A stretch of 63,467 bases of DNA, the filler included, from Myxococcota bacterium (GTDB lineage: Bacteria; Myxococcota; Myxococcia; Myxococcales; Myxococcaceae): the NCBI GenBank assembly GCA_049322255.1. It is 3 parts of 3 records of this genome, joined end to end, with 100 filler letters (N's around TTAATTAATTAA, not from the genome) between each part and the next. Parts side by side here need not be neighbours in the genome. Positions count along the whole stretch, not along the records: positions 27,185 to 52,621 come from JBMORE010000055.1; 2 more parts are not named here. One strand, written 5' to 3'. The first letter of the stretch is position 1. The number at the start of each line of letters is the position of its first letter. Of the stretch, positions 23,336-52,721 are shown piece by piece. The notes beneath the pieces were generated by a model. That model saw nothing but the letters and a program-made list of their open reading frames with translations. It made no database searches and was not told the origin of the DNA. Made by a program: the position numbers and the translations under genes.

Positions 23336-24964
23336 GTGAAAAAAGACGCGACGAAGACACGACGGTCAGAGCTCAGCGGCGGGCCCTTCCTGCTCCTCGT
23401 TTTCTTGTCCATTCCGAGCACCGGTCAGGCGGGCAACTTTCCCTTCGAAATCGTTCATCCGCACACGGGTGATACCGCCGTTGTTCGCCACACCAAGGCT
23501 TATCCCGGATTGGAGTACTACCTCGAGCCGGTGGCGATTGGAGGCGATTGGCCGTGGACGGCGGCGCTCACGAACGCTCCGGCGGGGATGACGGTGGCTT
23601 CGGAGATCGATCCTCTCACCGGGATGCCGAAGATCGTCATTCGCTGGCCCAATCCGACGACAGCCGGCAGCCCCCACAACGTGACACTTCAGATGTGGGA
23701 TTCCGACACGGACGGTGCTGGTCCTAACGACATTCGGGAGACGGACACCGTCTCGTGGACCGTGACAGTGACGACGGACGGCTTCCTGTTCCTCGACGCC
23801 GTCAATGGCAACGACAGCAATCCGGGAACCCCTGCATCACCGAAGCGGACGATCAACGGGTTCTTCCTCGGGTCGAACGGTGACTCGACGTACGCAGACT
23901 ACTTCGTCTACTTCCGCGCGGGCACCTATACGTGGGTGGGTGTGCCCGCGAGCGGCAGTGGGTTGCCGCGACCTGGTCAACAGATCACTATAGGCACGAA
24001 CAAGCCGACCGTATGGCTCGCCTACCCCGGCGATGCGATGCCGGTCGTCGACTACGGCTACAACGAAGGCGCTGGCAGCGCTCCCGTGTTCGTCCAGATG
24101 GACGACCCGTACATCGACGGCCTGCATTTCACGAACAGCATCAACCATTTTTTCCGCGGGTTCTCTCCCTACGCCCGCGTGCTTCGTTCGAAGTTCTCAA
24201 ACCTGGGGCCGGGGGCGGACGGCTTCAATTCGTCGGGCATCATGTCCGTCAACACCGGGTGTACGCCTGCGGTCTACCCCAACATCACCGGGTGTCACGA
24301 ATACGGTGCAATCACCACGAGCGAGTTCACCGACTTCGAAAACGCGTCCGCGATCAAGATTTACTCACTCAAGTACTTCGCGTTTCAGCTGAACAAGGTC
24401 CACAACTTCTTCGGCACCGAGGTGGAGGGCATCGCCCTCAAGGGCGGCGTGATGTACCACATGGACGTGACGGGCAATCATGTCTACGGCGTGGTGGACA
24501 GAGCGATGAACGGGAACTGGCAGGACATTCACAAAGGCGACTTCCGCTTCAACCGCTTCCACGACAACGGGGGACCGAGATCGTGGTTCGTCAACCAAGG
24601 TGGCAGTGCGACCGAAATCTGGATGTACCGCAACACGATTCTCGGTCGTGTGCAGGTCGCGAACGTCGACGAGGTGACGGACGGGCCGTTTACCTTCTCG
24701 AACAACGTCTTCGTCAATGAATTCAGTGGGACGCCGGCGGGGAGCCACATCGAGCACAACAACGTCACACAGCCAGGTCGCGTCATCATTTCCGCGTCGC
24801 CCAACGGGAATCTGGCCTGCTTCGGCGCCGACGCGTGTACGGATGCAGACGGAAACCTCGTTGGTACTTACACCCAGTATCTCGGCCAGAAGGGCTTCGA
24901 GGTTGGGCCGTCGTCTCCTGGCTCGCCTGCCCCAGCCCCTCCGCGCAACCTGCGCGTACAGTGA
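23336..24964 (+). CDS. secreted protein, Ig-like N-terminus plus parallel beta-helix (pectin-lyase-like)
   Basis: Signal peptide, APAGMTV Ig-like segment, FLDAVNGNDSNPGTPASPKRTI motif, Asn-rich beta-helix repeats. Confidence 0.6.
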   Translation: MKKDATKTRRSELSGGPFLLLVFLSIPSTGQAGNFPFEIVHPHTGDTAVVRHTKAYPGLEYYLEPVAIGGDWPWTAALTNAPAGMTVASEIDPLTGMPKIVIRWPNPTTAGSPHNVTLQMWDSDTDGAGPNDIRETDTVSWTVTVTTDGFLFLDAVNGNDSNPGTPASPKRTINGFFLGSNGDSTYADYFVYFRAGTYTWVGVPASGSGLPRPGQQITIGTNKPTVWLAYPGDAMPVVDYGYNEGAGSAPVFVQMDDPYIDGLHFTNSINHFFRGFSPYARVLRSKFSNLGPGADGFNSSGIMSVNTGCTPAVYPNITGCHEYGAITTSEFTDFENASAIKIYSLKYFAFQLNKVHNFFGTEVEGIALKGGVMYHMDVTGNHVYGVVDRAMNGNWQDIHKGDFRFNRFHDNGGPRSWFVNQGGSATEIWMYRNTILGRVQVANVDEVTDGPFTFSNNVFVNEFSGTPAGSHIEHNNVTQPGRVIISASPNGNLACFGADACTDADGNLVGTYTQYLGQKGFEVGPSSPGSPAPAPPRNLRVQ

Positions 24965-27084: not shown

Positions 27085-27184
27085 NNNNNNNNNNNNNNNN
27101 NNNNNNNNNNNNNNNNNNNNNNNNNNNNTTAATTAATTAANNNNNNNNNNNNNNNNNNNNNNNNNNNNNNNNNNNNNNNNNNNN
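27085..27184. other. assembly gap with artificial TTAATTAATTAA linker
   Basis: N run with all-frame-stop linker at 27129-27140. Confidence 0.98.
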
Positions 27185-27272
27185 AATTCTTCCATTCACT
27201 CAAACGCTTTCGCCGACTCGCAACACGCTATGAAAAGACAGCTCGAAACTTTCTCGCACTCATCCACCTCGC

Positions 27273-27848
27273 GTGCATTCGCATGTGGATCAATTAGGGA
27301 CATCCCCTAGGACCCCCAACCATGAAGACAAGCAAGGACGCGAGCAGGTTGCAAGGGTGCTCGCACAGGCGATTGAACTGCTCGGCCGAGCGGCCTTCGT
27401 CACGAGCGGAGAAGACGTGCAGGCAGGGGAGCGTCTGTTCTCTCTTGCCGGTGGAGTCTTCGATGAAGCCAAGGAGTTGGGCTTCTCAGTAGCGGTGGAA
27501 GTCGGGAGCGCCGGGGCGAGCGAAGCGAGCGGAGGCGCCCTTCCTGTGCTGTGCGAAAGGCACGGCAAGGCGCTTGATGCGGACGCGAGGCCGCTCGGGC
27601 TTTGCTTCTTCTGCGCGCTGGAGGTGCAGACGAAGCAGCGTCGGGAGATTGAGCAGCTCCGGCGAGCGCTTGGCAGGCGCACCGACGAAGCGGACGCGCT
27701 CGCGCATGAGGTTGCGCGGGTGTCGGCGATGGTGGCCACGGTGGAGAGGGAGCGCAACGACGCGCGCAAGGAGCGCGACGCGGCGAAGCTGCTCGCCGAG
27801 CGCTTTCTCGAAGCGGCGACCGTCGCGGGAAAGGCGGTGTCGCCATGA
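27273..27848 (+). CDS. provirus hypothetical protein (CxxH..CxxC plus coiled coil)
   Basis: LCERH..LCFFC, heptad-rich C-terminus; start uncertain. Confidence 0.6.
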
Positions 27849-28072
27849 CCTCGCCATGGGAACAAATCGACAAGATGCGGAGGGCGCACGGCGAGCTGAC
27901 CTCGTGGATGGCATCAACGGTTCCGCACTGGGAGCTAGCAGAGCCAGTAGGCGCAAACTACCGAGCGATACGCAGGGTGAGCGGTGAGCTGCGGCACGAC
28001 GTGAGGGCGCGAACGGCGGCCGAGCTTAGAGGGGCAATTGAGGCCGAGCTCGCCAAGGGGGCGCGGCCATGA
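27845..28072 (+). CDS. provirus hypothetical protein
   Basis: ATGA-coupled at both ends. Confidence 0.65.
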   Translation: MTSPWEQIDKMRRAHGELTSWMASTVPHWELAEPVGANYRAIRRVSGELRHDVRARTAAELRGAIEAELAKGARP

Positions 28073-28380
28073 GCGCGCGACAACTGACGTTCGAGGACGT
28101 TCGCGCGGACTACGGGAGGCGCAAGAGCAACAAGGAGGGCTTGCGCGCGCTGCTCGCTGATGGGCGATGGCACGGCATCCGCGAACTGCACGAGGTCGCG
28201 GGCTGGCGGTACGGCGCGCGCATCTTCGACTTGCGCGGCGAAGGGTTGGTGATTCATCGCCGGCCGGTCGGCGCGGGGCTGTACGAATGGCGATGGAGTG
28301 CAGCGCGCGGCGTTGATCAGGAGTGCGACGCAGGTTGCTGCCTGGCGCGGCCGGCGGGAGGGGAGGTGTCGGCACCATGA
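28069..28380 (+). CDS. winged helix-turn-helix DNA-binding protein (phage type)
   Basis: ELHEVAGWRYGARIFDLRGEGLVI resembles phage wHTH (ARI.DLR..G..I). Confidence 0.65.
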   Translation: MSARQLTFEDVRADYGRRKSNKEGLRALLADGRWHGIRELHEVAGWRYGARIFDLRGEGLVIHRRPVGAGLYEWRWSAARGVDQECDAGCCLARPAGGEVSAP

Positions 28381-28583
28381 GCCACCTACCCTTATTCGAG
28401 TCGTTCAAAGCCGAGTCGTGTCAGCCGGGGCGGTGTTGGCTCTGCGATGAGCCGCTCCCATCGCGACCGGCGAACCGGCGCGGCCGGCGCCGCGAGACGT
28501 GCGGCCGGGGCGCGTGCAGGAGTCTCTATCAGTCGCTGTACGGCATCGCGCGCCGGGCGCGGGAGGTGAGCGCGCATGGGTAA
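28377..28583 (+). CDS. small zinc-finger-like protein
   Basis: CWLC..RGRRRETC..AC; GGAGG RBS, ATGA overlap. Confidence 0.65.
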   Translation: MSHLPLFESFKAESCQPGRCWLCDEPLPSRPANRRGRRRETCGRGACRSLYQSLYGIARRAREVSAHG

Positions 28584-28797
28584 GAGCACCATCAAGCCGG
28601 AAGACCGGGAGCGGTTCACCCGCGAGCTAATGCGGGTGCTCGATTCCATCGAAGAGACGGAAGAGGCGCGCAAGATTGCGGCGGCAGACTTCCGCCAAGA
28701 GCTGGCGAAGCTCCACGAGCGGGCGCGTCACTGGCGCGCGCTGCTCGCCGGCAGGAAGGGCGAGCAGTTGGAGTTGCCAGCCGAGGCGGAGACATGA
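28576..28797 (+). CDS. provirus coiled-coil hypothetical protein
   Basis: GGAGG RBS; helical charged sequence. Confidence 0.65.
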   Translation: MGKSTIKPEDRERFTRELMRVLDSIEETEEARKIAAADFRQELAKLHERARHWRALLAGRKGEQLELPAEAET

Positions 28798-29006
28798 ACG
28801 CCCGCTTTCGAGTCTTCGGGCGCTTCAACGGGGCGCCGGCCGCGACGGTGATCGTCAACCGAGCATCGGGCATCATCACCGTTCGCCCGCTGCGGCGCCG
28901 CAAGGTCTACGAGCTGCCACTCGCGTTCGTGGCCGAGCTGGTGATGTGGCGAATCCTCAAAGCGGAGGCGGCCGAGAAGAGGGCGCGCCGGAAGGCGAAG
29001 CGATGA
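28794..29006 (+). CDS. small basic provirus protein
   Basis: ATGA-coupled; TVRPLRRRKVYELPL, basic C-terminus. Confidence 0.7.
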   Translation: MNARFRVFGRFNGAPAATVIVNRASGIITVRPLRRRKVYELPLAFVAELVMWRILKAEAAEKRARRKAKR

Positions 29007-29221
29007 ACGCCAGCGAGCTGAAGGAGGCACGGCGCGCGACGGCCATCGTTGCGCGCAACCTGATGTTGACTGCGCTATCACCTCGCGCGCCTGGGCCGAC
29101 GCGGGCGGCAGCGGGCCTTGCTGGGCTGTTGTTGGCTTGGGCGGTGGTCGAGTCGAGGACGCTTGAGCCAGAGCCGACCGACCGCGGAACGCTCAAGCGC
29201 GCCAAAAACGACCGATTGTGA
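29003..29221 (+). CDS. provirus hypothetical protein with hydrophobic segment
   Basis: ATGA-coupled; AAAGLAGLLLAWAVV. Confidence 0.55.
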   Translation: MNASELKEARRATAIVARNLMLTALSPRAPGPTRAAAGLAGLLLAWAVVESRTLEPEPTDRGTLKRAKNDRL

Positions 29222-29278: not shown

Positions 29279-29926
29279 TCAGGAGGGGTTTTTGACGAGC
29301 GGGGCGGCCGACGCGTCATCGGCGCCCCGTTCGCGCTTCCTACGCCAAACCTCGCGGCGCAGCGTGGCTTCTGAAAGGCTGTTCGCCTTGGCCACGGCGG
29401 CGCAGGGCTGGCCGGCTTCCACGAGTTCAGCGGCGGCGGAAAGGAGGATGGGTGAAACGCGAGGCCGACCGAGCTTCTTTCCCTGGCGGCGCGCACGTTC
29501 GAGGCCGGCGCGGGTGCGCTCAATCAGCCGGTTTCGCTCCTGCTCGGCGACCCACCCGAAGATTGCGACCAGAAGCTTGCGCACAGGGCCGGAGGTGTCG
29601 AGCCAGGGTTCGCGCACGCTGAGAACAGGAACACCAAGCTCGTCAAGTTCGAGCACCGTGGTGATTGCTCCAAGCATCGAGCGGTGCAGACGGTCAAGCG
29701 CCCACACCACGACGGCGCGGCGGCGGCCGGCGCGCGCGTCGGTCATCAGCGCATCGAGCACCGGACGATTTTTCGCGGCGCTCTCCTGTTCCTCGTACCA
29801 AACCGGCTCGAAGCCTCGAAAGCGGGCGAATTGCTCGACTTCGGCGCGTTGGTTCTCAACCGTCTGTTTGTCAGTGCTCACACGGAGATACACCGCGGCA
29901 GGTTGTTTGGTGGTGTGGAGTGCCAT
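29279..29926 (-). CDS. small serine recombinase (resolvase/invertase family)
   Basis: YLRVSTDKQ catalytic Ser motif, LDRLHRS, ERNRLIERTRAGLERAR, GRP, C-terminal HTH. Confidence 0.93.
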   Translation of the reverse strand: MALHTTKQPAAVYLRVSTDKQTVENQRAEVEQFARFRGFEPVWYEEQESAAKNRPVLDALMTDARAGRRRAVVVWALDRLHRSMLGAITTVLELDELGVPVLSVREPWLDTSGPVRKLLVAIFGWVAEQERNRLIERTRAGLERARRQGKKLGRPRVSPILLSAAAELVEAGQPCAAVAKANSLSEATLRREVWRRKRERGADDASAAPLVKNPS

Positions 29927-29940
29927 AGACTTCCTCCATC

Positions 29941-30168
29941 ATGGAAAAACCAGAGTGGTTGAGCCTGAAGACGCAGGGCGTGAGAGTGGACAAGCAGGGC
30001 CGGTGTGTGCTGCCGGCGAAGCTGAGGCGGGAACTGGGCATCTTGCCTGACGAGGTGTTGGTAGCTTGGGCGCAGGACGGCCGAATCTTGCTGGCATCGC
30101 AGGAAGAGGCGTTCCGCTACATCGGAGCGCAGGCCAAGAAGGGGAAGAAACGTGGTCGCACTCGCTGA
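29941..30168 (+). CDS. AbrB/MazE-family antitoxin
   Basis: VDKQGRCVLPAKLRRELGI. Confidence 0.85.
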   Translation: MEKPEWLSLKTQGVRVDKQGRCVLPAKLRRELGILPDEVLVAWAQDGRILLASQEEAFRYIGAQAKKGKKRGRTR

Positions 30169-30562
30169 TGTTCGCGCCGTCGTGGATGCAACGGCGGTGC
30201 TTGCGGCCGTACTCGACGAGCCGGGCGGCGAGCGCGCCAAGGCAGCAATTCGCCGACGCGCTGTGATGAGTGCCGCGAACCTGGCGGAAACGCTCGGCAA
30301 GCTGCGGCTCAAGCATCCAGCCGTGGATGTAGCGGACGTGTTTGCGATTCCGGGGCTTCAATTCCGGCCTTTCGACGTGCAGGACGCGCGGCGCGTTGGC
30401 GACCTGGCCACCAAGGCGCCAGGAGTCAGCCTTGCCGACCGCGCGGCGCTCGCGCTCGCGCAGCGGCTTCGGCTGCCGCTCGTTACCGCCGATCATGAGT
30501 GGGCGGACCTCGACGTGGATGTGGTGCTGACCTACTTTCGCGAGCGGAAGCAGAAGAAGTAG
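30152..30562 (+). CDS. PIN-domain toxin (VapC family)
   Basis: VVDATAVLA, SAANLAE, SLADRAALALA, TAD. Confidence 0.9.
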   Translation: MVALADVRAVVDATAVLAAVLDEPGGERAKAAIRRRAVMSAANLAETLGKLRLKHPAVDVADVFAIPGLQFRPFDVQDARRVGDLATKAPGVSLADRAALALAQRLRLPLVTADHEWADLDVDVVLTYFRERKQKK

Positions 30563-30725
30563 CCCCGTCCACTGGAAACCCCCATTCGTCGACCGCGACG
30601 CGCCAAGGGCCATGACCGGCTGCGAGGCGCCGAGCGCGGATGAAGCCCAGCGCGGCCCAGCGGTAGACGGTGGCGACATGCACGCCGCATCCAGCCGCGC
30701 ATTCCTTCAGAGCCACCCATCGCAC
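30483..30725 (-). CDS. MerR-like/excisionase-type HTH protein
   Basis: GTG start; WVALKECAAGCGVHVATVYRWAALGFIRARR..GPWRV; 3' end overlaps the vapC gene. Confidence 0.65.
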   Translation of the reverse strand: MRWVALKECAAGCGVHVATVYRWAALGFIRARRLAAGHGPWRVAVDEWGFPVDGATSSASARESRSAPHPRRGPPTHDRR

Positions 30726-30818
30726 GCGCGAAGAATGCGAGCGAGTGCGCGCGCCCGCAAAAAATTGCACAACCTTGCAAACTGATTCGGCAGCAGGCGC
30801 ACGGGACAATTCGCGCCC

Positions 30819-31225: not shown

Positions 31226-31924
31226 GTGGGGCTCGAAGAGCAAGAGCTGGAGGCGGAAGCCGCCATGGCCGACCCTGCCGTTACCGCTGCGGCCGTCGCC
31301 GCGACGCACGGAGGAGTTGTGCCGGCGGCGCTGGAGTCCACGGCCGATGTGCCGCACAAGCGCGTGCGCAAGCCGCTGGACGAAGAGGCTCGCCGCCGTC
31401 GTGCAGAACGCGACAGGGCGAGGCGCCTACTCGCGCGCCTCAAAGACGCAGAGAACGAAGAGGAGTTGCGCGCAAAAGCGGCCGAACTGCTCGGCGCGCC
31501 AGTCGCGGCGCCGGAGTCGCCTTCGGTGGAGAGCGCGCCGCATCAGGCCGCGCCAGCCATCCCGACGATGGAGCCGGGCCAGCGTCCGGGGTGGCCGCCG
31601 CCCTCGCTCGTGGCGGAATTTTCCCCGGTGGCGCTCCAACTGTGGGACGGCGCGCGCAGGGTGTTGCCGGCCCGCTACGCGTCAGCGCTGGAGGCGCGCA
31701 CCATCAACGGCCAGGAGGTTCGGCCGGTCGAGCTGCTCGCGCACGGCACGGCTCCGGTGCTCGCCAAGTGGGTGCCGGAGGTGGCCACCACGCCAGAGGC
31801 GGCGCTCGCGGTTGCGGTGGTGACGGTGTTTGGCCCGGTGGCGCTCGCCCATGCGAAAGAGCTGGTGGGTGCGTGGCTGGCGAGCCGCGAGGACGCGAGG
31901 GCGACAGAGGGAGAAGCCAAGTGA
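31226..31924 (+). CDS. provirus protein with C-terminal membrane segment, upstream of packaging ATPase
   Basis: GTG after GAGG; ALAVAVVTVFGPVALA; GTGA overlap with the ATPase. Confidence 0.65.
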   Translation: MGLEEQELEAEAAMADPAVTAAAVAATHGGVVPAALESTADVPHKRVRKPLDEEARRRRAERDRARRLLARLKDAENEEELRAKAAELLGAPVAAPESPSVESAPHQAAPAIPTMEPGQRPGWPPPSLVAEFSPVALQLWDGARRVLPARYASALEARTINGQEVRPVELLAHGTAPVLAKWVPEVATTPEAALAVAVVTVFGPVALAHAKELVGAWLASREDARATEGEAK

Positions 31925-32568
31925 CTTCCGCGCGCGTCAAGCCGCACGACCGGGTGCTCGTCATCGGCAAGACGGGCTCGGGCAAGTCGAACAAGGCCAA
32001 GGCTCTGGTGTCGGCCGAGCTGGAGCACGGCGCGCGGGTGCTGGCGTTCGACCCGCTGGACGAATGGAGCCGGCACGGGCGCAAGAGCGACCATCGGAGG
32101 CTAGGGCCGCTGCGCGATCGCTGCACGGTAGACGACTTGATGCGCGAGCCGGAGATACTCGACGCGAACGATCTCTCTCTCGCCGTCGTGCCGTCGCAGG
32201 CGCGGCGGGAGTGCGCGGAAGACTTCGTGCAGGTGGCCGCGCTGGTGAAGGACACAGGCAACGTGCTGCTCACTGTCGAAGAGGTGGGCTTCTTCGGCGA
32301 CCGCTGTGAAGAGTCGCTCATCGAGGCCGCCTGCACATTCCGTCACTACGGAGTGGGGATGGTCTTCGTCGCGCAGTGCGCAATTCAGATTCCAAAGATG
32401 GCGCGCCGACAGGCTTCGCAAATTTGGTCCGGGCGACAAGACGACCCGGAAGACTTGAGCGCGCTGGCCAAGGTGGCCGGCGCCGAATTCGCCGAAGCGG
32501 TGTCACGCCTGCCGCGCGGAGAGTTGCTTCATTGGCGTGACGACTTCTCGGAAGGAAGGGCGAAATGA
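31921..32568 (+). CDS. FtsK-HerA superfamily genome-packaging ATPase (A32/P9-like)
   Basis: 215 aa; VLVIGKTGSGKS, VLAFDP, LLTVEE, FRH, MVFVAQ, IPKMARRQ. Confidence 0.82.
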   Translation: MTSARVKPHDRVLVIGKTGSGKSNKAKALVSAELEHGARVLAFDPLDEWSRHGRKSDHRRLGPLRDRCTVDDLMREPEILDANDLSLAVVPSQARRECAEDFVQVAALVKDTGNVLLTVEEVGFFGDRCEESLIEAACTFRHYGVGMVFVAQCAIQIPKMARRQASQIWSGRQDDPEDLSALAKVAGAEFAEAVSRLPRGELLHWRDDFSEGRAK

Positions 32569-32699
32569 AAGCTGCATTGTGCATTGTCTGCGGGGCCATC
32601 GGCGGCGCTGCCGTGGTGGCGATTCTCAACCGCGTTGGCTTTGGCCAGTCGATTCTTGCGACCACCAAGGCCGACCTCACCGATCCGGCGCGCAAGTAA
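32565..32699 (+). CDS. small (44 aa) membrane protein
   Basis: ATGA overlap, GGAAGG RBS; MKAALCIVCGAIGGAAVVAILN... Confidence 0.6.
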   Translation: MKAALCIVCGAIGGAAVVAILNRVGFGQSILATTKADLTDPARK

Positions 32700-32720
32700 G
32701 CAAGGAAAGGAAGGCACGCG

Positions 32721-34091
32721 ATGAAACGAGTTACCAGTCTTACTCTCGCCGCTGCGGGGGCCAATCAGAAGATGGAGCGCGGAGAGCTACTCTTGCGCAA
32801 AGGAAAGAAGATGCCAGGCATCCGCTGCAAGGTGACGGTGCCGGTGAAGAACGCAGGCGGCGGCGCAGCGGCAATGACCGACGCGGAGCGGCAAGAGCTG
32901 CTCGACGAGCTGACGGTAAACCTGAACTACGGCCGAGCTGGGGACTTCAAGGTTTACCAGGCACAGACTCTCAAGAGCATTCAGCGCGTGGCGCGCGAGT
33001 GCTACGGCTCCGAATTCGAAGGGTATGGCGACTCTTCGACAGGGTTGGCCAAGTCGATTGGAGCGGGCGCCACCGCGTCGCTCGTCTTCTGGGCCATCAT
33101 TCCCACCGGGCGCTTCTGGAAGCTGGGGCCGCAGCACCAGGACCGGCGCGCATGCGGGCGAAGCCAGGCCAAAACCATCGAGCTGGAGTTCATCCGGTCG
33201 AGCGCTACTGGCGCCTTCTCGGGAAGTTTCTCCATCGACGGCCAGGTGACGGTGGACATCTACCCGCACGAAGTTTCCGCCAAGGGCGACAGGTATTCGG
33301 TGCTGCCGGAGTTCCTCTACATCGAGGAAAACAAGCTCACCGCGGTACTGCCTGCCGGCCTGCCACTGTACATCGGCGACAGGAACGCGGCCCACGCCTC
33401 TGCGGCCTTCACCAATTTGACGGTGAAGGTGGATGAGGAGGTCATCCATGACCAAGTGTCGGCGGCAGACCTCCTCATCCCCAACCTGGACGTGCCCAAC
33501 ACCCCGAGCGAGTCTCAGGTGACCGACAGGGAGACGTTCATTTACGCGCCAGAGCCGGGCGTGGAAATGTGGAGCCTGCCCACCGGCACGCCCACGGTGA
33601 CGCAAAACACCCGCGACGTGACGACGATGAAGCTCGCTTACCTGTACGTGCCGGTCTACCCGACCGACAAGTTGCAACAGGAGTTCGAGCACATCGCGGC
33701 CAACGTGCGGCCCAAGGCGCTGCGCGCGGCCTCCCTTCATGTCATCGACGGCGAGGAGGTGCCCGACCGGCTGAAGTTTGCCGAGCCGGCGATGCTTCTC
33801 GACCGGGATGATAGGGAATGGGAACAGGCGGGAGGCTTCACCGTCTTGGAGCCGGGCAAGCCAGGGCAGGTGATGATGCCCGTCTCTGCGGTGCAGCGCG
33901 CAAAGGCGGCGGTGGCCATGCACGCGGCGGCCGGAGAAACCAAGGCCGCTCAGCATGTCATGCGCACCTTCGCCGGTGCGGTGCCGGGAGCGGTGCCTTC
34001 GCCCCGCGGCTACGGCGGCGGCGGCGCGGGCAAGTTGCTTTCCGAGGTGGCCACCGGCTTCCTTGGGGTGCCCAAGGAAGCCTGCAAGTAG
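32721..34091 (+). CDS. candidate major capsid protein (double jelly-roll inferred)
   Basis: Largest soluble ORF of the element, strong RBS, right after the ATPase, alternating beta-strand patterns; fold unverified. Confidence 0.55.
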   Translation: MKRVTSLTLAAAGANQKMERGELLLRKGKKMPGIRCKVTVPVKNAGGGAAAMTDAERQELLDELTVNLNYGRAGDFKVYQAQTLKSIQRVARECYGSEFEGYGDSSTGLAKSIGAGATASLVFWAIIPTGRFWKLGPQHQDRRACGRSQAKTIELEFIRSSATGAFSGSFSIDGQVTVDIYPHEVSAKGDRYSVLPEFLYIEENKLTAVLPAGLPLYIGDRNAAHASAAFTNLTVKVDEEVIHDQVSAADLLIPNLDVPNTPSESQVTDRETFIYAPEPGVEMWSLPTGTPTVTQNTRDVTTMKLAYLYVPVYPTDKLQQEFEHIAANVRPKALRAASLHVIDGEEVPDRLKFAEPAMLLDRDDREWEQAGGFTVLEPGKPGQVMMPVSAVQRAKAAVAMHAAAGETKAAQHVMRTFAGAVPGAVPSPRGYGGGGAGKLLSEVATGFLGVPKEACK

Positions 34092-34100
34092 GGGCGTCCG

Positions 34101-34769
34101 ATGCCTGCTCCGCTCCTCATCGCAGGCGCCGGGATGGGCGCCGCCGCTGTCGCCAGTGCGGCGGCGGCGCTCGTCTCCAAGCGCCGGAAGGCCAAGCAGT
34201 CGCCTCTTCGGGAGTCGCTGCCTGGGCGCGAGACGGCGCAAGCAGGCAGGCCGAGCCCGGCGCCGCGCAGCGATGCGGCGCCGGGCCTCAAGCTGCCCAC
34301 CGGAGCTATCGCCGGAGCGGGCGGCGCGGCAGCAACAGTTGGCGCGGGGCTTCTGCTGAATGCCGGGTTGGGCAAGTTGACCGAGCTGTCGGGCGGCACC
34401 GAAGGGCGCAGCAACTACGTCGCCGCAACCGGCATCCCCGGCTTCGTCGGAGTGCAGACCGCGCAAGGAATTTCTACCGGCCTGCGCGCCGTGGGGGTGG
34501 ACGCCAACGCGGCAGAAAGTTTGGGCCGCTGGGGCGGGGCGGCGGCGGCGGTGGGGCTGGTGACGGGCGGTTTTGGGCTTCCTGCGGTGGCCGGCGCTGC
34601 GGCTCTATACGAAGGCACCAAAGCGATTGTGGGTGCGGTGGGTGGAGAGCAGGCGGCGAAAGACTTCGCCAATGCCGTAGCCAGCCTCGACCCCACATCG
34701 AGCAAAACCATTCCGGGGCAAGTGGTGGGCGCGGTGGGTGGATTCATCAAAAACCTTTGGCCGTTCTGA
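34101..34769 (+). CDS. Gly/Ala-rich membrane-associated virion protein candidate
   Basis: Several hydrophobic GxxxG-rich segments. Confidence 0.65.
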   Translation: MPAPLLIAGAGMGAAAVASAAAALVSKRRKAKQSPLRESLPGRETAQAGRPSPAPRSDAAPGLKLPTGAIAGAGGAAATVGAGLLLNAGLGKLTELSGGTEGRSNYVAATGIPGFVGVQTAQGISTGLRAVGVDANAAESLGRWGGAAAAVGLVTGGFGLPAVAGAAALYEGTKAIVGAVGGEQAAKDFANAVASLDPTSSKTIPGQVVGAVGGFIKNLWPF

Positions 34770-34779
34770 GGTGACCGAA

Positions 34780-35046
34780 ATGAAGCTGGGTGACTGGATA
34801 GGGTTGTTTCTCTTGCTCGCTGGCGTGGGGGTGGGCGGCTTCTTCCTCGTGCGCGAGCTGAACAAGCCAGCCGCAATGGGGGCGTCGCTGCCTCAGCAAC
34901 AGGTGGCGCCGCTGTCGGGCTCTCCCGTTGGGCAGTTACCGGCGCAGTCGCCACCGGCCCAGCCGGGAGACTTGCTCGGGCAGTTGGGCAACATCGTCAA
35001 CACCGGCGTCAGCATCTTCAACACCGTCTCTTCGCTGTTCAAGTGA
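34780..35046 (+). CDS. small N-anchored membrane protein
   Basis: GAGG RBS; WIGLFLLLAGVGVGGFFLV. Confidence 0.7.
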   Translation: MKLGDWIGLFLLLAGVGVGGFFLVRELNKPAAMGASLPQQQVAPLSGSPVGQLPAQSPPAQPGDLLGQLGNIVNTGVSIFNTVSSLFK

Positions 35047-35056
35047 GAGGCCGCGC

Positions 35057-35680
35057 GTGAAGAGTCGCATTCGACAGGCCGACGCGGACGGAAAAATTCT
35101 TCAGGCCGGCGGCACGGGCATAGGCTTCTGCCTCTTGCCCGCGGTCGAGCCGGGCGCGGGCGCCACCGTGGGGCCGGGCAGCTACCCGGTGCGGGTGCGC
35201 TTCAAGGGCGAGGGCGAGGTGTTGGAAATCTCCAACGGCACCCCCTTCGTGCGACACCAGCCGTTCCGCGGCTTCGACGTGGAGAACTGTCAGCAAGGGG
35301 ACTCCTGGCAGATTGTCACCCTGGAGTCGCGCTGCGAATCCATCGGCGCGGCGGCGGCCAAAACGCGCCACGCGCGCCAGGTGCAGGCGGCGACCGCCAT
35401 TCCCACCGCGGCGGCGGTGAATGGCGACGCCAGCGGTTTCCGTCTCTACCCTGGCGACAGGGAATTGCAGTTCTACATCACCGGCGCGGGCGTGGATGTG
35501 GACCTCTACACGCAGGCGCTCTCCGGCGTGTGGCATCTGGCGGAACGACTCGCCGAGGCCGCCGACGCCCGCCCCCTCGTCATCGCGCGCACGGTGGCCG
35601 GAGCTATTGGCAGGCTGTACCTGCGCGCGAGCGCGGGCGGCGGGCTGGTGGAAATCGACCGCGAAAGCGAGGTCGGTTGA
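35057..35680 (+). CDS. beta-rich virion protein (penton/minor capsid candidate)
   Basis: GTG start; short beta-strand patterns; directly upstream of the spike. Confidence 0.5.
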   Translation: MKSRIRQADADGKILQAGGTGIGFCLLPAVEPGAGATVGPGSYPVRVRFKGEGEVLEISNGTPFVRHQPFRGFDVENCQQGDSWQIVTLESRCESIGAAAAKTRHARQVQAATAIPTAAAVNGDASGFRLYPGDRELQFYITGAGVDVDLYTQALSGVWHLAERLAEAADARPLVIARTVAGAIGRLYLRASAGGGLVEIDRESEVG

Positions 35681-36975
35681 TGAGTGCGCGGACTCGCTTG
35701 CTGGTTGACGCGCTGCTCGCGCTCTCCGCGGCGGGCGTGCTGCTCGTGGCGTCGTTGGGGTGGGCGGACCCGGCAGGCGCGAGGGCCAGCGGCGGCGCCT
35801 GCCGTAAGGGCGGGGTGTGCCTGGCGGGGAAGTTCCGCGCCGCGGACGGAAGCGCGGCGACGCCCGCGTATTCGTTCATCTCCGACACCGACACCGGTTT
35901 CTACAGGGCGGGTGCGAATCAGCTCGGCATATCGGTGGGCGCTGCTCGAAGCTTCGTATTTATAGGAACGCCGGGTTACCTGGAGGGTGACGCGAGCACT
36001 GTTTCGCTTCAGCTTCGCGCGGCGGCTGGAACCTGGCTCACGTCAGGCGCGACCAACATCGGCATAGGTGCGCCGGGAACGGCGGCGTCCACAACCAACG
36101 GCTACGCCGGGCAAGTGGCGTACACCGTGAGAGGCGCGTCGGGGCAGACCGCCAACCTCCAGGAGTGGAACGTTGCCGGCGGTGCCGCGCTGGCCGCGAT
36201 TCTCGCCGCCGGCACGTTGGTGGTCCCGGGAGCCACGGCGGGGATTCCCGCCTTCTACGGCTCTGATGCGAACGCCCGCATCTTCTCGAACGGCTCAGTG
36301 GGGTTGCAGCTCCAATACAACAGCGCCAACGGCGGCACGCTGACGTTCGATTCGAACGGCATCATTGCGAGCGGCTCGGGTTCGGCGACGTTCAAAATCA
36401 GGAATCAACTCCTGAACGACTCGGGCGACCTGACCATCAATGACACGGTGGCGGTCACCTCTCTACAGACGGCTGGCGGAATCGTCTATGGCACAGCCAG
36501 CACGCTGGGGGTGAGCGCCGCTGGCACCAGCGGTCAATGTCTCAAGAGCGGCGGCAGCGGAGCCCCAACGTGGGGGACGTGCGACGGCGCCGCCTACCTA
36601 GCTGAAGCGCTTTGGGGTTTTGCAGGCAGGTGCGGCATCGGGGCGTCCTGCGTCACAGAGGCGAATTTTCTAGGGCCGTACAGAACAAGCGTTTTCACGG
36701 CGTTTGCGGCCAAAAGCATCAGCTGCTCGTGGGGCACCGCAGGGACCGGCGGCACCACCGGGGTGGTGGTGGAATTGCTCGACAACACCACTCCCGCATC
36801 AGTCTGCACCTGCACCTTGGGGGCGTGCACTACGTCTGCTTCGACGCCGCTCATCTGTGGTTGTGCTGGCTCGGTGGGACCAAACAAGACGCTGGTGATG
36901 CGGCTCGCGAGCACCACCGATTGCACGGCCAACCCGCAAGAAATTCACTGCAACGTGATGGGGACCGCCCAATGA
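35680..36975 (+). CDS. spike/fibre-like receptor-binding protein candidate with signal peptide
   Basis: DGSAATPAYSFISDTDTGFY and GTSGQCLKSGGSGAPTW fibre-type motifs; G/S/T/A-rich; Cys-rich tip. Confidence 0.7.
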   Translation: MSARTRLLVDALLALSAAGVLLVASLGWADPAGARASGGACRKGGVCLAGKFRAADGSAATPAYSFISDTDTGFYRAGANQLGISVGAARSFVFIGTPGYLEGDASTVSLQLRAAAGTWLTSGATNIGIGAPGTAASTTNGYAGQVAYTVRGASGQTANLQEWNVAGGAALAAILAAGTLVVPGATAGIPAFYGSDANARIFSNGSVGLQLQYNSANGGTLTFDSNGIIASGSGSATFKIRNQLLNDSGDLTINDTVAVTSLQTAGGIVYGTASTLGVSAAGTSGQCLKSGGSGAPTWGTCDGAAYLAEALWGFAGRCGIGASCVTEANFLGPYRTSVFTAFAAKSISCSWGTAGTGGTTGVVVELLDNTTPASVCTCTLGACTTSASTPLICGCAGSVGPNKTLVMRLASTTDCTANPQEIHCNVMGTAQ

Positions 36976-37271
36976 CTCGACGACTCACGCTGCTCTTCGC
37001 GCTCGCCGGCTTCGTCGGAGGTGCCGCGCTCGCCCAGCGCACCGTCACCTACGAGCCGCCAGCGGCGGTGTATGGGGTGGACCTGAGGCGCGCCGAAGAC
37101 GGCGGCGTGTTCCTCGTGGTGCATGCGCGCGCAGAGAGCGCGGACGGCGGCGACGTGCTCGACAGAGCGCGCAGGTGCGAGGTGGGGGAGTTGACGGCCA
37201 CGCAGCGAACGGCGCTGGCCACCGTGCGCACGGCGGCGCTCGCTTGCTGGCGCGCACACGAGGGGTTGTGA
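36972..37271 (+). CDS. small exported provirus protein
   Basis: Signal peptide MTRRLTLLFALAGFVGGAALA; ATGA overlap. Confidence 0.65.
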   Translation: MTRRLTLLFALAGFVGGAALAQRTVTYEPPAAVYGVDLRRAEDGGVFLVVHARAESADGGDVLDRARRCEVGELTATQRTALATVRTAALACWRAHEGL

Positions 37272-37640
37272 ATGGGCTGGGTTGACGCCATTTGGAGCGG
37301 CGCGGAGGCCGCGTGGGACGTGGCACAAGCCTACGTCCTGCCAGGGTACACGTTGCCGGCGGCAGCGGCGGCGGGCGTGGTGGCAGAGCTGTCAGACGCC
37401 AACCGTGAGGGGCGGGAATTCTCCTATGCCAACGCGGCCGGCAACACCGTCACGCAGGCGGCGCCGGGGCTGGTGGTGGCGGGGGAAAAGGCGGTGGACG
37501 CGGCCAAGAAGACGGGCGAAGCGGTCAAGTCGCTCTGGGCGTCCTTGTGGTGGGTGCCGTGGGTGGCGGGCGGGGTGGTGGTTGTCGCGGGCCTCTTCGT
37601 CGCGGCGCCATACGTGACGCCGTTTCTGCCGCGGAGGTAG
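37272..37640 (+). CDS. C-terminally anchored membrane protein
   Basis: LWWVPWVAGGVVVVAGLFVAAPYV. Confidence 0.7.
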   Translation: MGWVDAIWSGAEAAWDVAQAYVLPGYTLPAAAAAGVVAELSDANREGREFSYANAAGNTVTQAAPGLVVAGEKAVDAAKKTGEAVKSLWASLWWVPWVAGGVVVVAGLFVAAPYVTPFLPRR

Positions 37641-37645
37641 GTAGC

Positions 37646-37855
37646 ATGGATGAGTTCATTTCGGCGTTGCTCCAGTCGCGCGAGGTGGGCGCCACCATCG
37701 GCGCGAGCATCGGAGCGGCGGTAGCAGGTTGGGCGGCGGTGCGTCGCACCATGCGCCGTGAGGTGCGCGGCATCGCCCGCGAGGAGGCAGACGCGGCCAT
37801 TGACAGGCGCGTGCGGCCGGCGGCGTTGCGCGCAGGGGCGGGCGGTGCGCCGTGA
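37646..37855 (+). CDS. small membrane protein (holin candidate)
   Basis: GGAGG RBS; one TM segment, basic tail; immediately upstream of the endolysin. Confidence 0.5.
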   Translation: MDEFISALLQSREVGATIGASIGAAVAGWAAVRRTMRREVRGIAREEADAAIDRRVRPAALRAGAGGAP

Positions 37856-38438
37856 GTGGAAGCTGCTTCTTGGCGCCGCCGCGGTGGCGTTGCCTGGCGG
37901 CGCGCTTGTCGCGGGCGCGTGGTGGCTGTGGCGCCGCGCGGGCGGCATGGAGAAAGGCAGCGTCATGACGGGCGCGCGTATCCACAATCGCCACCGCGCG
38001 GACGGTATGCGCGCCGAGCTGCGCGCCTTCCTTGACTGGTGGGAGGCGCACGGGCCGTTCCCGCTGCAAATACCTCCGTTGGGTGGCTTGCGCACCGACG
38101 CGGAACAGGCCGCGCTCTACGCGCAAGGACGCACGGCGCCAGGTGCGCGCGTCACCAATGCGGCGACGGCGCGCGACACCCCCCATGGGCGCGGGGCTGC
38201 ACTCGACGTGTACCCGGTGCGCGAGGTGAATTTCGCGGGCGGGGTGGCGCGCATCTGGACGGGCGACGAGTCAGACCCGGCGGAACGCGCGCACGCGCGC
38301 GCGCTGTTGGCGCGCGTAGGCGAGGCGGCGGAAGCGCGCGGGCTGGTGTGGGGTGGACGATGGAATGGGCTGGAGGACTTGCCGCACCTGGAGCTACCCA
38401 ACTGGCTGGAGCTGCCCATGCCCGGAGGTGTCGCGTAA
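37845..38438 (+). CDS. M15 family (L-Ala-D-Glu-type) peptidase endolysin with N-terminal TM
   Basis: LRTDAEQAALYAQGRT, VTNA, PHGRGAALD, GLVWGGRW, DLPHLE. Confidence 0.88.
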   Translation: MRREWKLLLGAAAVALPGGALVAGAWWLWRRAGGMEKGSVMTGARIHNRHRADGMRAELRAFLDWWEAHGPFPLQIPPLGGLRTDAEQAALYAQGRTAPGARVTNAATARDTPHGRGAALDVYPVREVNFAGGVARIWTGDESDPAERAHARALLARVGEAAEARGLVWGGRWNGLEDLPHLELPNWLELPMPGGVA

Positions 38439-38716
38439 TGCTGTTGTGGGAGACAACGACGAAGATGAAAAGCGCGCCGCTCGGGTTTGGCATTGCCACC
38501 GCGCAGGCGCAGGGCGGCGTGCAGTCGGCATCCGCTGCGGCGCCACTGTCGGCCGTGGTGGGTAGCCTGCAACTCGTGCAGCGCCCGCAAAGCGCGGCGG
38601 CCGAAGGCGCGGCGCACAAGGAGCAGGAGGGAGGCGACTGGTGGCCGTGGGCGTTGGGCGGGGCGGCGGTGCTCGCCGTGGGTGCAGTGGTGCTTGTGGT
38701 TGTCGGCAGTCGATAG
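38438..38716 (+). CDS. C-terminally anchored membrane protein
   Basis: TAATG overlap; DWWPWALGGAAVLAVGAVVLVVVG. Confidence 0.65.
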   Translation: MLLWETTTKMKSAPLGFGIATAQAQGGVQSASAAAPLSAVVGSLQLVQRPQSAAAEGAAHKEQEGGDWWPWALGGAAVLAVGAVVLVVVGSR

Positions 38717-38726
38717 GAGGTGCGCA

Positions 38727-38909
38727 ATGTTTGGTTTGCTGTTTGGAGACAAGGGGCTGAAGTTGTCGGCGGCGCTGGTGGCCGTCGCGGTGGCGGTGCA
38801 GGCGTTGACGCCCCCGCACACCATCGCCCATCAGGTGGCCGGCTACATCATCGGCGCAGGCGCCGTGCTGGGGGTGGCCAGCACCACTGGCCGGGAGCCG
38901 CGATCGTGA
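38727..38909 (+). CDS. small two-TM protein (holin candidate)
   Basis: AGGAGG RBS; two hydrophobic segments. Confidence 0.6.
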   Translation: MFGLLFGDKGLKLSAALVAVAVAVQALTPPHTIAHQVAGYIIGAGAVLGVASTTGREPRS

Positions 38910-39082
38910 AAGTCGCAGCAATCTTGCTAGGGGTGGTGGTGGGCGGCGCCGTCTTCGGCTGGGGCGGGGCGCTTCTGGCGCCTAAGGTGCTCGACCGCAA
39001 GCTTGAAGGTGTAGAGCAGCTCGGCGCCGCCAGTGCGGGATGGCTCGTCGGCGGCCTGACTGCCTACCTGCTCACGAGGTGA
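38906..39082 (+). CDS. small two-TM protein
   Basis: GTGA overlap; ILLGVVVGGAVFGWGG and AGWLVGGLTAYLL. Confidence 0.6.
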   Translation: MKVAAILLGVVVGGAVFGWGGALLAPKVLDRKLEGVEQLGAASAGWLVGGLTAYLLTR

Positions 39083-39086
39083 AGCG

Positions 39087-39362
39087 ATGCTGACCGCGCT
39101 CCTCAAAGACGCCTACGCGGAAGTGGAAACGTCGCTCTCGCCGCCGGTGCGCGTGCCGCTGGCCGACGACGGTTCGCCGCCATCGCCGCTGGTGCGTCTG
39201 TTGAGGCCGCGCGTGCGCATCCTCAAAGGCGGGGTGGAGCTGGCGCGCATCCAGCCGGCCGGTGCGCCTGGCCCCGAAGGTGGGCCGCGCTGGGGGCTGG
39301 TGCTGGCGGTGAGCGCGGGCGTGCTGGTGCTGGGCGCTGTCGCCTGGGGGGTGCTGCGATGA
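39087..39362 (+). CDS. C-terminally anchored membrane protein
   Basis: WGLVLAVSAGVLVLGAVAWGVLR. Confidence 0.65.
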   Translation: MLTALLKDAYAEVETSLSPPVRVPLADDGSPPSPLVRLLRPRVRILKGGVELARIQPAGAPGPEGGPRWGLVLAVSAGVLVLGAVAWGVLR

Positions 39363-39565
39363 GTCGCCGCCGCAAGAAGAGTTCGCCGCCGGGCGAGGGC
39401 ATCCGCAAGACGCGCACCCGTAAAACGCTGCGCCAGGTGGGGAGCCGCAAGGTGGAAACCACTACCAAGACGAGCGAAGTCATTTGCACCGGCGAGGGGG
39501 AGTTTTGCCGCAAGCTGCGGCGGATACTGGGGCGCGGGGCCAAGGTGCTGTTGGAGCCGGTGTAA
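39359..39565 (+). CDS. small highly basic protein
   Basis: ATGA overlap; R/K-rich. Confidence 0.6.
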   Translation: MSRRRKKSSPPGEGIRKTRTRKTLRQVGSRKVETTTKTSEVICTGEGEFCRKLRRILGRGAKVLLEPV

Positions 39566-39577
39566 CCGGAGGTCGTC

Positions 39578-39784
39578 ATGCTGCGAGTGTTTGCCATCGC
39601 TCTCGGCGCTGCGCTGGGGGCTTTCGTGGCCGCCGAGCTGGTGCCCAGCGAAGCGGAGCTGAAGAAGGCGCGTCTGCGTCGCCGGGAGCTACTCCAAGAC
39701 GCGCAAGCCGCCATCGAGGCCGAGCTGGCCGCCATGGAGCTGCAGAAGGCTCAGGAGGCCGCCAGGGTGCCAGCGGCGGGGTAG
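39578..39784 (+). CDS. N-anchored coiled-coil protein
   Basis: GGAGG RBS; TM then heptad-rich segment. Confidence 0.6.
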   Translation: MLRVFAIALGAALGAFVAAELVPSEAELKKARLRRRELLQDAQAAIEAELAAMELQKAQEAARVPAAG

Positions 39785-39857: not shown

Positions 39858-40526
39858 TTATTGCTTCTGGAGCTGGACGGTCAAAGACTGGAGGCCTCCG
39901 CTTGGCTGGAGCGTGAAGGACCCTGAAACGAAATCGGCTTCGGTGGGCTTGTATGAGAGCACGGATGAAACGGTGTCGTCGGAAAATGCATCAATATCGA
40001 AGGCCTGAAACTGAAACCCGGTGGTGAGCAGGTCGCTCGCCTTCGCGGTGCAGCCGCCGGAGTTCCATGTTGGGTTGTAGCTCGACGCCTCGGGAGTGGA
40101 GCTGTCGAAGGTTGTGGTGCTGAACGGTGGGCAGTCGAGGCGGATCACCACGTCGGGCGCGCTGTTGTCGCCGTCCCAGGAAGAGCCGTTGTTGTTGGGG
40201 GTGATGGTCGCGGCCGTGGGCTGTACCTTCCACATCGAATCCGGGTCAACACCGCACGTCTGCTCGACGCGGCAAATCTGGTTGGCCGAGCACGCGGCGC
40301 ACGCGGAGCCGTTCTTTCCGCATGCGGCGGCAGTGCTGCCGGGCTGGCAGGCGCCGCTCAGGCAGCAGCCGGCGCAATTCTGCGCGGTGCAGCCGGCGAC
40401 AGAGCCACCACCACCGCCGGCACCGCCGCTCCCTCCGGCGCCGCCCGTGCCGCCGCCGGTATTTCCGCCATCGCCGCCGCACGCGAAGAGAGAGAAACCA
40501 AGAAGAGACAGGGAAAGAAGGCGCAT
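39858..40526 (-). CDS. Cys-rich lipoprotein with Gly linker (provirus cargo)
   Basis: Lipobox LFAC, poly-Gly, CxxxxCxGCC module, beta-rich C-terminal domain. Confidence 0.75.
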   Translation of the reverse strand: MRLLSLSLLGFSLFACGGDGGNTGGGTGGAGGSGGAGGGGGSVAGCTAQNCAGCCLSGACQPGSTAAACGKNGSACAACSANQICRVEQTCGVDPDSMWKVQPTAATITPNNNGSSWDGDNSAPDVVIRLDCPPFSTTTFDSSTPEASSYNPTWNSGGCTAKASDLLTTGFQFQAFDIDAFSDDTVSSVLSYKPTEADFVSGSFTLQPSGGLQSLTVQLQKQ

Positions 40527-40780: not shown

Positions 40781-41863
40781 ATGTCCGCTGTTCTGCCGTT
40801 CGTCCCCAAGCTGCCGGCGGGGGCGGGAGTGCCTACAGGGTTGGCGTTGCCTGAGTTGTGGCGGCAGTGGTGGCCCACCACCGGCCAGCGCATGGCCAAG
40901 AATACGCAGAAGGTGTACCGGCGCACCGAGGCGCTTTCGCACTCCCTGCCTTCGCACCCCTCCGTCTTGGACGTGGCGCACTGGCTCGCCGCGCTGGGGC
41001 GCATGGGGCACGGCGCCGGCACTGCCGAGCTGCGCCGTCAAGTGCTGGCCGCCCTCTACTCCTGGGGCATGTCGGCGGGGCTGGTGTCCGCCAACCCCGC
41101 CGCGCTGTGCAAAGGCATTCTCCACCGTCCACCCCGCGCCGACATTCACCCCGGCGTGCGCGAGTTGCTCGACGCCTGGCCGGCGCTGCTTTCCGCCTGC
41201 GCCACCGAGCGCGAGGCGGGCTTCTTGGGTGTCCTGCGCTTCGCCGGCCTACGTGAAGAAGAGGCGCTGGCCATGCGCGCCCGCGACGTGTTGCAGGCCC
41301 AGGAACCTTGGGGCCTTTCCGTCATGTACCAGCGCCCCCACGTCAACGACCTGGTGCGCGTCGCCGAGTGCAAGGGCCGGCGCGGGCGAGACTTGGAGGT
41401 GCGCCCCGAGCTGCGCGCGCTGCTCGCGCCGGTGTTGGCCCTGCCCCCGGCGGTGTTGCGCTTCGGCACCCGTTCTGCGGAACGGGTGAAGCGCGAGGTG
41501 GCCTGGCTCTTCCCCTTCCGTGAAGGAGAGCTACGCAAGTTCGCCGCCCGTCTGCGGGAGGTGGCCCCCGAGGCGCTTCTGCCCCGGCGCCTGTGGCACC
41601 ACTTCCGCCGCGCCTTCGCTTACGAGTTGCGCGCCGCTGGCGTCGCCATCGAGGACATTCGCGACTTGCTGGGGCACGAGTCGTCATTGACGACCGAAGG
41701 CTACTGCGGGCGCGTCCTGGGGCGCCGGGTGCGGCGCGGCATCTTCAACCCGCTTCTGGGTGGGAAAGGGCACCCCACCACCGAAGCGGCTTCTATCCGG
41801 GTTGGCAGTTCTAACCCTGATAGAAACGTCCCAAGTGCCCGCGGAGAAAGCGAAAATGAGTGA
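40781..41863 (+). CDS. tyrosine recombinase / integrase
   Basis: FAGLR, HHFRR, LLGH, TTEGY catalytic signature; ends 9 nt from the tRNA 3' end. Confidence 0.9.
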   Translation: MSAVLPFVPKLPAGAGVPTGLALPELWRQWWPTTGQRMAKNTQKVYRRTEALSHSLPSHPSVLDVAHWLAALGRMGHGAGTAELRRQVLAALYSWGMSAGLVSANPAALCKGILHRPPRADIHPGVRELLDAWPALLSACATEREAGFLGVLRFAGLREEEALAMRARDVLQAQEPWGLSVMYQRPHVNDLVRVAECKGRRGRDLEVRPELRALLAPVLALPPAVLRFGTRSAERVKREVAWLFPFREGELRKFAARLREVAPEALLPRRLWHHFRRAFAYELRAAGVAIEDIRDLLGHESSLTTEGYCGRVLGRRVRRGIFNPLLGGKGHPTTEAASIRVGSSNPDRNVPSARGESENE

Positions 41864-41872
41864 GGTAACAAG

Positions 41873-41943
41873 CTGGGGGACTAGGATTCGAACCTAGATA
41901 GCCAGATCCAGAGACTGGCGTCCTGCCTTTAGACGATCCCCCA
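41873..41943 (-). tRNA. tRNA-Gln (CTG)
   Basis: TGGGGGA acceptor stem, anticodon loop CT-CTG-GA, GGTTCGAATCC T-arm; CCA not encoded. Confidence 0.95.
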
Positions 41944-52621: not shown

Positions 52622-52721
52622 NNNNNNNNNNNNNNNNNNNNNNNNNNNNNNNNNNNNNNNNNNNNTTAATTAATTAANNNNNNNNNNNNNNNNNNNNNNN
52701 NNNNNNNNNNNNNNNNNNNNN
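52622..52721. other. assembly gap with artificial TTAATTAATTAA linker
   Basis: N run, linker at 52666-52677. Confidence 0.98.

Follow-up and report, generated by a model that had tools for sequence, protein, structure and literature searches.

A predicted double jelly-roll capsid protein with a fused C-terminal domain in an integrated element of Myxococcota

Background

What does an unannotated gene for a 456-aa protein encode in a Myxococcota genome, and how does the integrated element that carries it multiply? The gene (32721-34091, +) lies in a window of 63,467 nucleotides, which is the whole stretch of DNA that was analysed, from assembly GCA_049322255.1. The window joins contigs C50, C55 and C128 through artificial N-plus-stop linkers at 27085-27184 and 52622-52721. 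Contig C55 begins at 27185, and whatever lies left of 27085 does not adjoin the element. A first-pass annotation had proposed that the protein is a divergent major capsid protein made of two beta-sandwiches. We argue that the best explanation, taken whole, is a double jelly-roll (DJR) major capsid protein, and we hold this with high confidence. New here are an unannotated capsid family, a fused domain without a structural match and a branch of elements that has a resolvase and no Rep.

Predicted fold and gene context

The open reading frame (ORF) has an ATG start, GC fractions of 0.64/0.47/0.82 by codon position and a codon bias that is normal for high GC. In the predicted model and the fold searches it contains two tandem eight-stranded jelly rolls with FG helices. 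The core covers residues 1-311 (32721-33653, +), and fold-search matches span 1-313/318. DSSP of the model, on which strand letters were assigned by hand, places V1 strands at 5-186, V2 strands at 197-311 and the FG helices at 84-95 and 248-256. All seven strand motifs quoted by the first-pass annotation fall on model strands (34-42, 64-70, 121-127, 153-159, 176-181, 233-238 and 305-310). The proposed capsid fold is likewise supported by the searches: STIV B345 (Turriviridae) is the top Foldseek match in both PDB and BFVD, and the highest Z, 16.4-16.6, belongs to P3 of PRD1/PR772 (Tectiviridae). The first-pass annotation had named an enzyme or an HK97-type fold as the contrary outcome. The protein does not show the family profile and catalytic residues of GH172/DUF2961, and family and PHROGs searches gave no match to portal, tail tube or HK97 capsid families among the element's proteins. 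With this fold, three copies of the 1-311 core would assemble into a pseudo-hexagonal capsomer, as in PRD1 P3 and PM2 P2.

Predicted fold and gene context together place the protein among the DJR capsids of tailless viruses that infect prokaryotes. Sequence and gene order are direct observations, as are the att site and the distribution below. Just upstream is a 215-aa FtsK/HerA-type ATPase (31921-32568, +) that likely packages the genome. It matches Pfam DUF87 above the cut-off, and its profile matches STIV B204 (E 2.2e-10), the best match among proteins of its own size. An ATPase of this A32/P9 type is adjacent to the capsid gene in relatives too. Between the two genes lies a 44-aa single-helix membrane protein (32565-32699, +) with a peak 19-residue hydropathy of 2.54. 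The order of ATPase, membrane ORF and capsid gene reported by the first-pass annotation is real and conserved, since a short hydrophobic ORF (peak at least 1.8) stands just ahead of the capsid gene in 24 of the 27 loci examined. The strong purine-rich ribosome-binding site (RBS) is there as well, at ~32702-32714 (+), with a purine fraction of 0.88 across the 16 nt scored.

Several points weigh against a DJR capsid. Against solved capsids the TM-scores reach modest values (0.36-0.44 by query, ~0.5-0.56 by target), identity to them is 12-15%, and every structural statement here is a prediction. No penton was identified in the element; going by size and position only, a single jelly-roll penton might be encoded by the 207-aa gene at 35057-35680. 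PHROGs names the ATPase 'terminase large subunit' (phrog_2666, E 1e-18). That match is limited to profile positions 314-502 of 555, and the ATPase has only 215 aa.

Distribution of the capsid family

No Pfam, PHROGs or NCBIfam entry matches the 456-aa protein. DJR viruses are under-counted because such capsid genes escape profile libraries. At E<=0.001 the 456-aa protein is matched by 133 representatives of 50% identity clusters, so the family holds at least 133 clusters. The alignment contains 124 of the 137 family proteins (lengths 429-488, median 449 aa), and 13 short pieces of 92-317 aa were left out. The capsid profile was found in 31 of 401 genomes of the phylum, the window's own included, and in 24 of 171 genomes of the taxonomic family. 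Named members come from Archangium sp. Cb G35 (P0005), Myxococcus sp. 1LA (P0110) and Archangium violaceum Cb vi76 (L081), from which we infer that the host is a myxobacterium. With carriers that are sequenced and named, both induction and cryo-EM are within reach. A literature search, mostly among open-access papers, found neither jelly-roll proviruses of myxobacteria nor such a fused domain.

There is also a sister family of 379-386-aa proteins (P0140-P0144), with a profile match of 97.5% (E 6e-12) over 226 core columns. It shares the order of ATPase, small ORF and capsid gene, in G026. Its members are ~70 aa shorter, and their tail does not match the C-terminal domain described below (probability 0.1%). 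The G026 member (L031:1480-2616) is a 379-aa capsid candidate with a short, different tail from another class-level lineage of the phylum.

Integration and replication of the element

The capsid gene lies in an integrated temperate element with an integrase and a duplicated att core. The tyrosine integrase (360 aa, 40781-41863, +) was assigned by family match, and its catalytic R, HxxR, H and Y positions are all present in the alignment. It ends beside the 3' end of the target, a tRNA-Gln(CTG) (41872-41943, -). Repeat comparison places the right copy of the 17-bp att core at 41870-41886 (+), overlapping the tRNA 3' end. The left copy is broken. A multicopy insertion sequence (IS) of ~0.9 kb, presumably of the IS5 family judging by its peptide, sits at CTAG within it and splits both att and the assembly (27185-27312; contigs C90 and C116 of this genome, G000). 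By contig comparison, the IS end occupies 27185-27310 (+) at the contig start and the right remnant of left att lies at 27307-27312 (+). Contig C90 starts with the other IS end, followed by the other 15 bases, from the tRNA 3' end; C55 carries the remainder of the 17-bp core. The att 15-mer is present at only two places in 4.85 Mb. We thus infer that the element is complete at 14,574 bp. This copy is likely locked in place, with excision blocked while the IS sits in left att.

Related elements use the same tRNA site, with a 17-bp repeat in G191 and a degenerate repeat in G247. The G191 locus (L077:5227-9490) is a 4.2-kb remnant with an integrase, an HTH gene and a capsid fragment between the repeats.

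Insertion and excision of the circle would be the work of the integrase. Excision would also fuse an RBS and its ATG, located beside the integrase (41856-41884), to the first left-arm frame (27311-27848), making a gene found only in the circle. In all three elements compared (this one and those of G191 and G247) the RBS and ATG lie 29-31 bases ahead of the crossover. The frames are 188, 148 and 260 aa when joined versus 13, 13 and 17 aa when integrated; the G247 joined frame holds only with a crossover in the left half of the core. An equally good frame arose at 266 of 5,000 random junctions. The ATPase would package the 14.6-kb genome and the endolysin would release particles.

It must be asked how such an element replicates. 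No replication gene was recognised in its 101 reading frames, 39 of which were also searched against PHROGs. This copy may therefore not be an autonomous virus, a point against the best explanation. We compared 31 regions around capsid genes. Ten have a serine resolvase upstream of a conserved HTH gene. None of these ten has a dif-like site within the region. A tyrosine integrase is seen in six, and the remaining four regions are cut short. Only one has a Rep-like match (G175), and this likely belongs to a second, adjacent element. Sixteen regions have a Rep-like gene, either of HUH type (PF23343 just under the cut-off) or of HTH type, presumed to be an initiator. A 28-bp dif-like site is found in 12 of these 16, and two more regions have the site without a Rep match. 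Relatives that lack an integrase lie at this site (G226, G144, G296, G354, G317, G190, G232, G304, G337, G346, G363, G367, G211 and G295), and in G226 and G144 an 18-bp repeat of the site flanks the element (G226: L043:8124-8149, L044:6418-6435). We read the site as dif from its 11-6-11 layout, which is that of other dif sites and is described in PMC12715192, and it is likely the myxobacterial XerCD site. An 18-base probe did not find it in the window's own assembly.

In a capsid tree with 31 rows, elements with a resolvase do not form a single clade, as read from topology, so the modules were likely swapped more than once. Passages of the literature describe both Int-type and dif-type DJR prophages in Vibrio; a resolvase that replaces Rep was not found in the passages of the DJR prophage literature searched. 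These paired lifestyles, Rep with a dif-like site and resolvase with integrase but no Rep, raise a testable question of how small proviruses replicate.

The strongest alternative keeps the capsid as genuine but takes the element for a relic that is defective or depends on a helper. The resolvase-type elements would have lost their replication gene and would spread in the company of a relative that has Rep, if they spread at all. The complete element has no recognised Rep or polymerase, its left att is split by the IS, and nine of the ten resolvase-bearing loci have no match to the Rep-like seeds. We still consider this scenario doubtful, if a serious contender. Elements with resolvase and integrase recur in six genomes of several genera and in separate capsid clades. 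Their frames are intact and the excision-joined gene is conserved, a pattern that suggests a functional way of life. A small initiator that escaped recognition could also lie in the left arm. Even if the element is a relic, this is compatible with the capsid assignment.

Three further observations concern these regions. G354 (C3:457000-477000; L036, L037) has two near-identical elements in tandem at a distance of 12.1 kb; the Rep-like gene is of HTH type in one and of HUH type in the other. In G157 (C6:189000-208999; L051) two divergent elements stand back to back with one central Rep-like gene in common. Left arms of the resolvase type can carry DNA-modification genes, namely DpdA in G244 (L048:1059-2063, E 1e-91) and two methyltransferases in G247 (L040:2643-4031).

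The C-terminal domain

Residues 312-456 (33654-34088, +) form an alpha/beta domain in the model, and structure searches found no structural match for it. The first-pass annotation had described an Ala/Gly-rich helical extension, possibly contacting the membrane, over the last 100 aa. This holds for that stretch, which is helical from residue 388 and has 33% Ala+Gly versus 19% in residues 1-310. The onset and extent need correction: the extension starts at ~312, is ~140-145 aa long, and its first half is alpha/beta and not Ala/Gly-rich. Hydropathy finds no transmembrane segment in it; the protein's top window, 109-127 (1.54), is in the core.

We argue that the fused domain is an inner layer joining shell and membrane, a proposal that we regard as evenly poised. 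By jelly-roll topology the last strand leaves at the capsomer base, and because of this we propose that the tail packs on the base loops. There it would serve as a stoichiometric inner layer, tying the shell to the membrane and directing assembly. Passages of PMC3136756 place the DE, FG and HI loops at the capsomer top in the DJR lineage and the N-terminal tail at the membrane-side base. Covariation, run on 153 sequences (effective 144), recovers plausible strand pairings within the protein. The six best core-to-tail pairs are 144-353, 288-351, 27-361, 212-428, 238-429 and 194-321. Their core positions are all in base-side loops, as are seven of nine in the top 60; such loops make up 24% of the core. 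On the other side, covariation is noisy past the top ranks, and the six-pair cut was picked after viewing the list, so that it is support, not proof, for packing on the base-side loops. The tail carries only a slight positive charge (over 381-440 the family mean is +0.04 to +0.07 per residue), and its helices are packed, not free, in the model.

In PM2 and NO16 this job falls to separate minor proteins (P3/GP18) beneath the capsomers, and in FLiP to a single C-terminal helix believed to touch the membrane (passages of PMC13552765). A folded domain fused beneath the capsomer would be a new solution for the shell-membrane link in the DJR lineage.

Alternatively, the tail of the same capsid protein may act for a time only, as a scaffold or to bind the genome, and be cut off when the particle matures, like that of the virophage mavirus. 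The major capsid proteins (MCPs) of mavirus and Sputnik are likewise DJR proteins with an inward C-terminal domain, and the 90-aa domain of mavirus has been proposed to act as a scaffold and to tether DNA, with cleavage at GG|X sites (passages of PMC6048507). Here the tail would point inward by topology, its end is mildly basic (8 K/R and 3 D/E in 385-456), and it has a conserved PG..RG and Gly-rich stretch at 422-435. However, no protease was recognised and the domain is ordered in the model, so we consider cleavage unlikely.

One can go further and suggest an undescribed family of tailless myxobacterial viruses. Its fused domain, of a fold not yet in the PDB, would be a second layer under the shell with one copy per subunit. 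Its resolvase branch would multiply without an initiator of known type, either by an unrecognised mechanism that the excision-joined gene switches on or with functions borrowed from relatives integrated at dif. We put this forward only tentatively.

Comparison with known viruses

The protein is not from a tectivirus. P3 of PRD1/PR772 likewise has two jelly rolls with FG helices, and the genomes are similar in size. However, identity is 12%, the alignment begins at P3 residue 39 and leaves the N-terminal stretch of P3 unmatched, and PRD1/PR772 lacks the 140-aa C-terminal domain. Tectiviridae have a linear genome, a terminal protein and a protein-primed family B polymerase, whereas this element is integrated between att sites with no polymerase in its 101 frames.

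Nor does the protein belong to the PM2 P2 sequence family (Vinavirales/Corticoviridae). The P2_N/P2_C families PF18628 and PF25513 match none of the 23 members scanned at E<=0.1 and do not match the query, and P2 has 269 aa versus 456 here. Unlike PM2-like and NO16 prophages, the element has a resolvase in place of Rep, and its myxobacterial host group is unnamed in the passages of the papers searched. No initiator of its own, HUH or other Rep, was recognised in the element; its relatives have HUH Rep-like genes.

The top Foldseek match of the capsid model and the ATPase profile match are both to STIV proteins. B345 has a much shorter tail, and at the sequence level the capsid profile matches no PDB capsid chain. 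The STIV group of Yutin et al. (2018) often has tyrosine integrases and PIN nucleases (passages of PMC5894146), and the main text of that paper contains no mention of myxobacteria, Archangium or Deltaproteobacteria.

That the protein is instead a cellular DJR protein, such as a GH172/DUF2961-like enzyme, or a domesticated non-capsid protein is very improbable, since viral capsids score nearly twice as high, the distribution of the gene is patchy, and wherever the flank is available it follows an ATPase of packaging type in an element bounded by att or dif.

Other genes of the element

The left arm (27309-29221, +) holds seven short genes that match no family; the first frame has no upstream start until the ends join. 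The small serine resolvase/invertase (29279-29926, -) occupies the slot of the relatives' Rep-like gene. It is followed by an AbrB/MraZ-like antitoxin and PIN toxin pair, assigned by family match as cargo (29941-30562, +). The conserved MerR/excisionase-like HTH gene (30483-30740, -), divergent from the structural operon and of uncertain start, is below the Pfam cut-off and matches PHROG 66 at E 1.2e-4. A 219-aa protein with a hydrophobic C-terminal segment (31265-31924, +) is kept ahead of the ATPase among the loci compared.

Downstream of the capsid gene is a structural block of 222-, 88-, 207-, 431-, 99-, 122- and ~70-aa genes (34101-37855, +), recognised by weak tail-fibre/structural PHROGs and comparison of loci. 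Several of its proteins have hydrophobic helices, and the 431-aa protein is a candidate spike. The endolysin (37866-38438, +), of uncertain start, is a Peptidase M15 by family match; most relatives have GH19. Small hydrophobic ORFs are numerous in the element, and by hydropathy five of the six small ORFs at 38438-39784 (+) are hydrophobic, making this group holin or virion membrane protein candidates. The Cys/Gly-rich, lipoprotein-like gene at 39858-40526 (-) has no family match and appears to be cargo. On the host side, 23336-24964 encodes a 542-aa ORF like a secreted protein, with lower GC and a repeated, beta-helix-like character.
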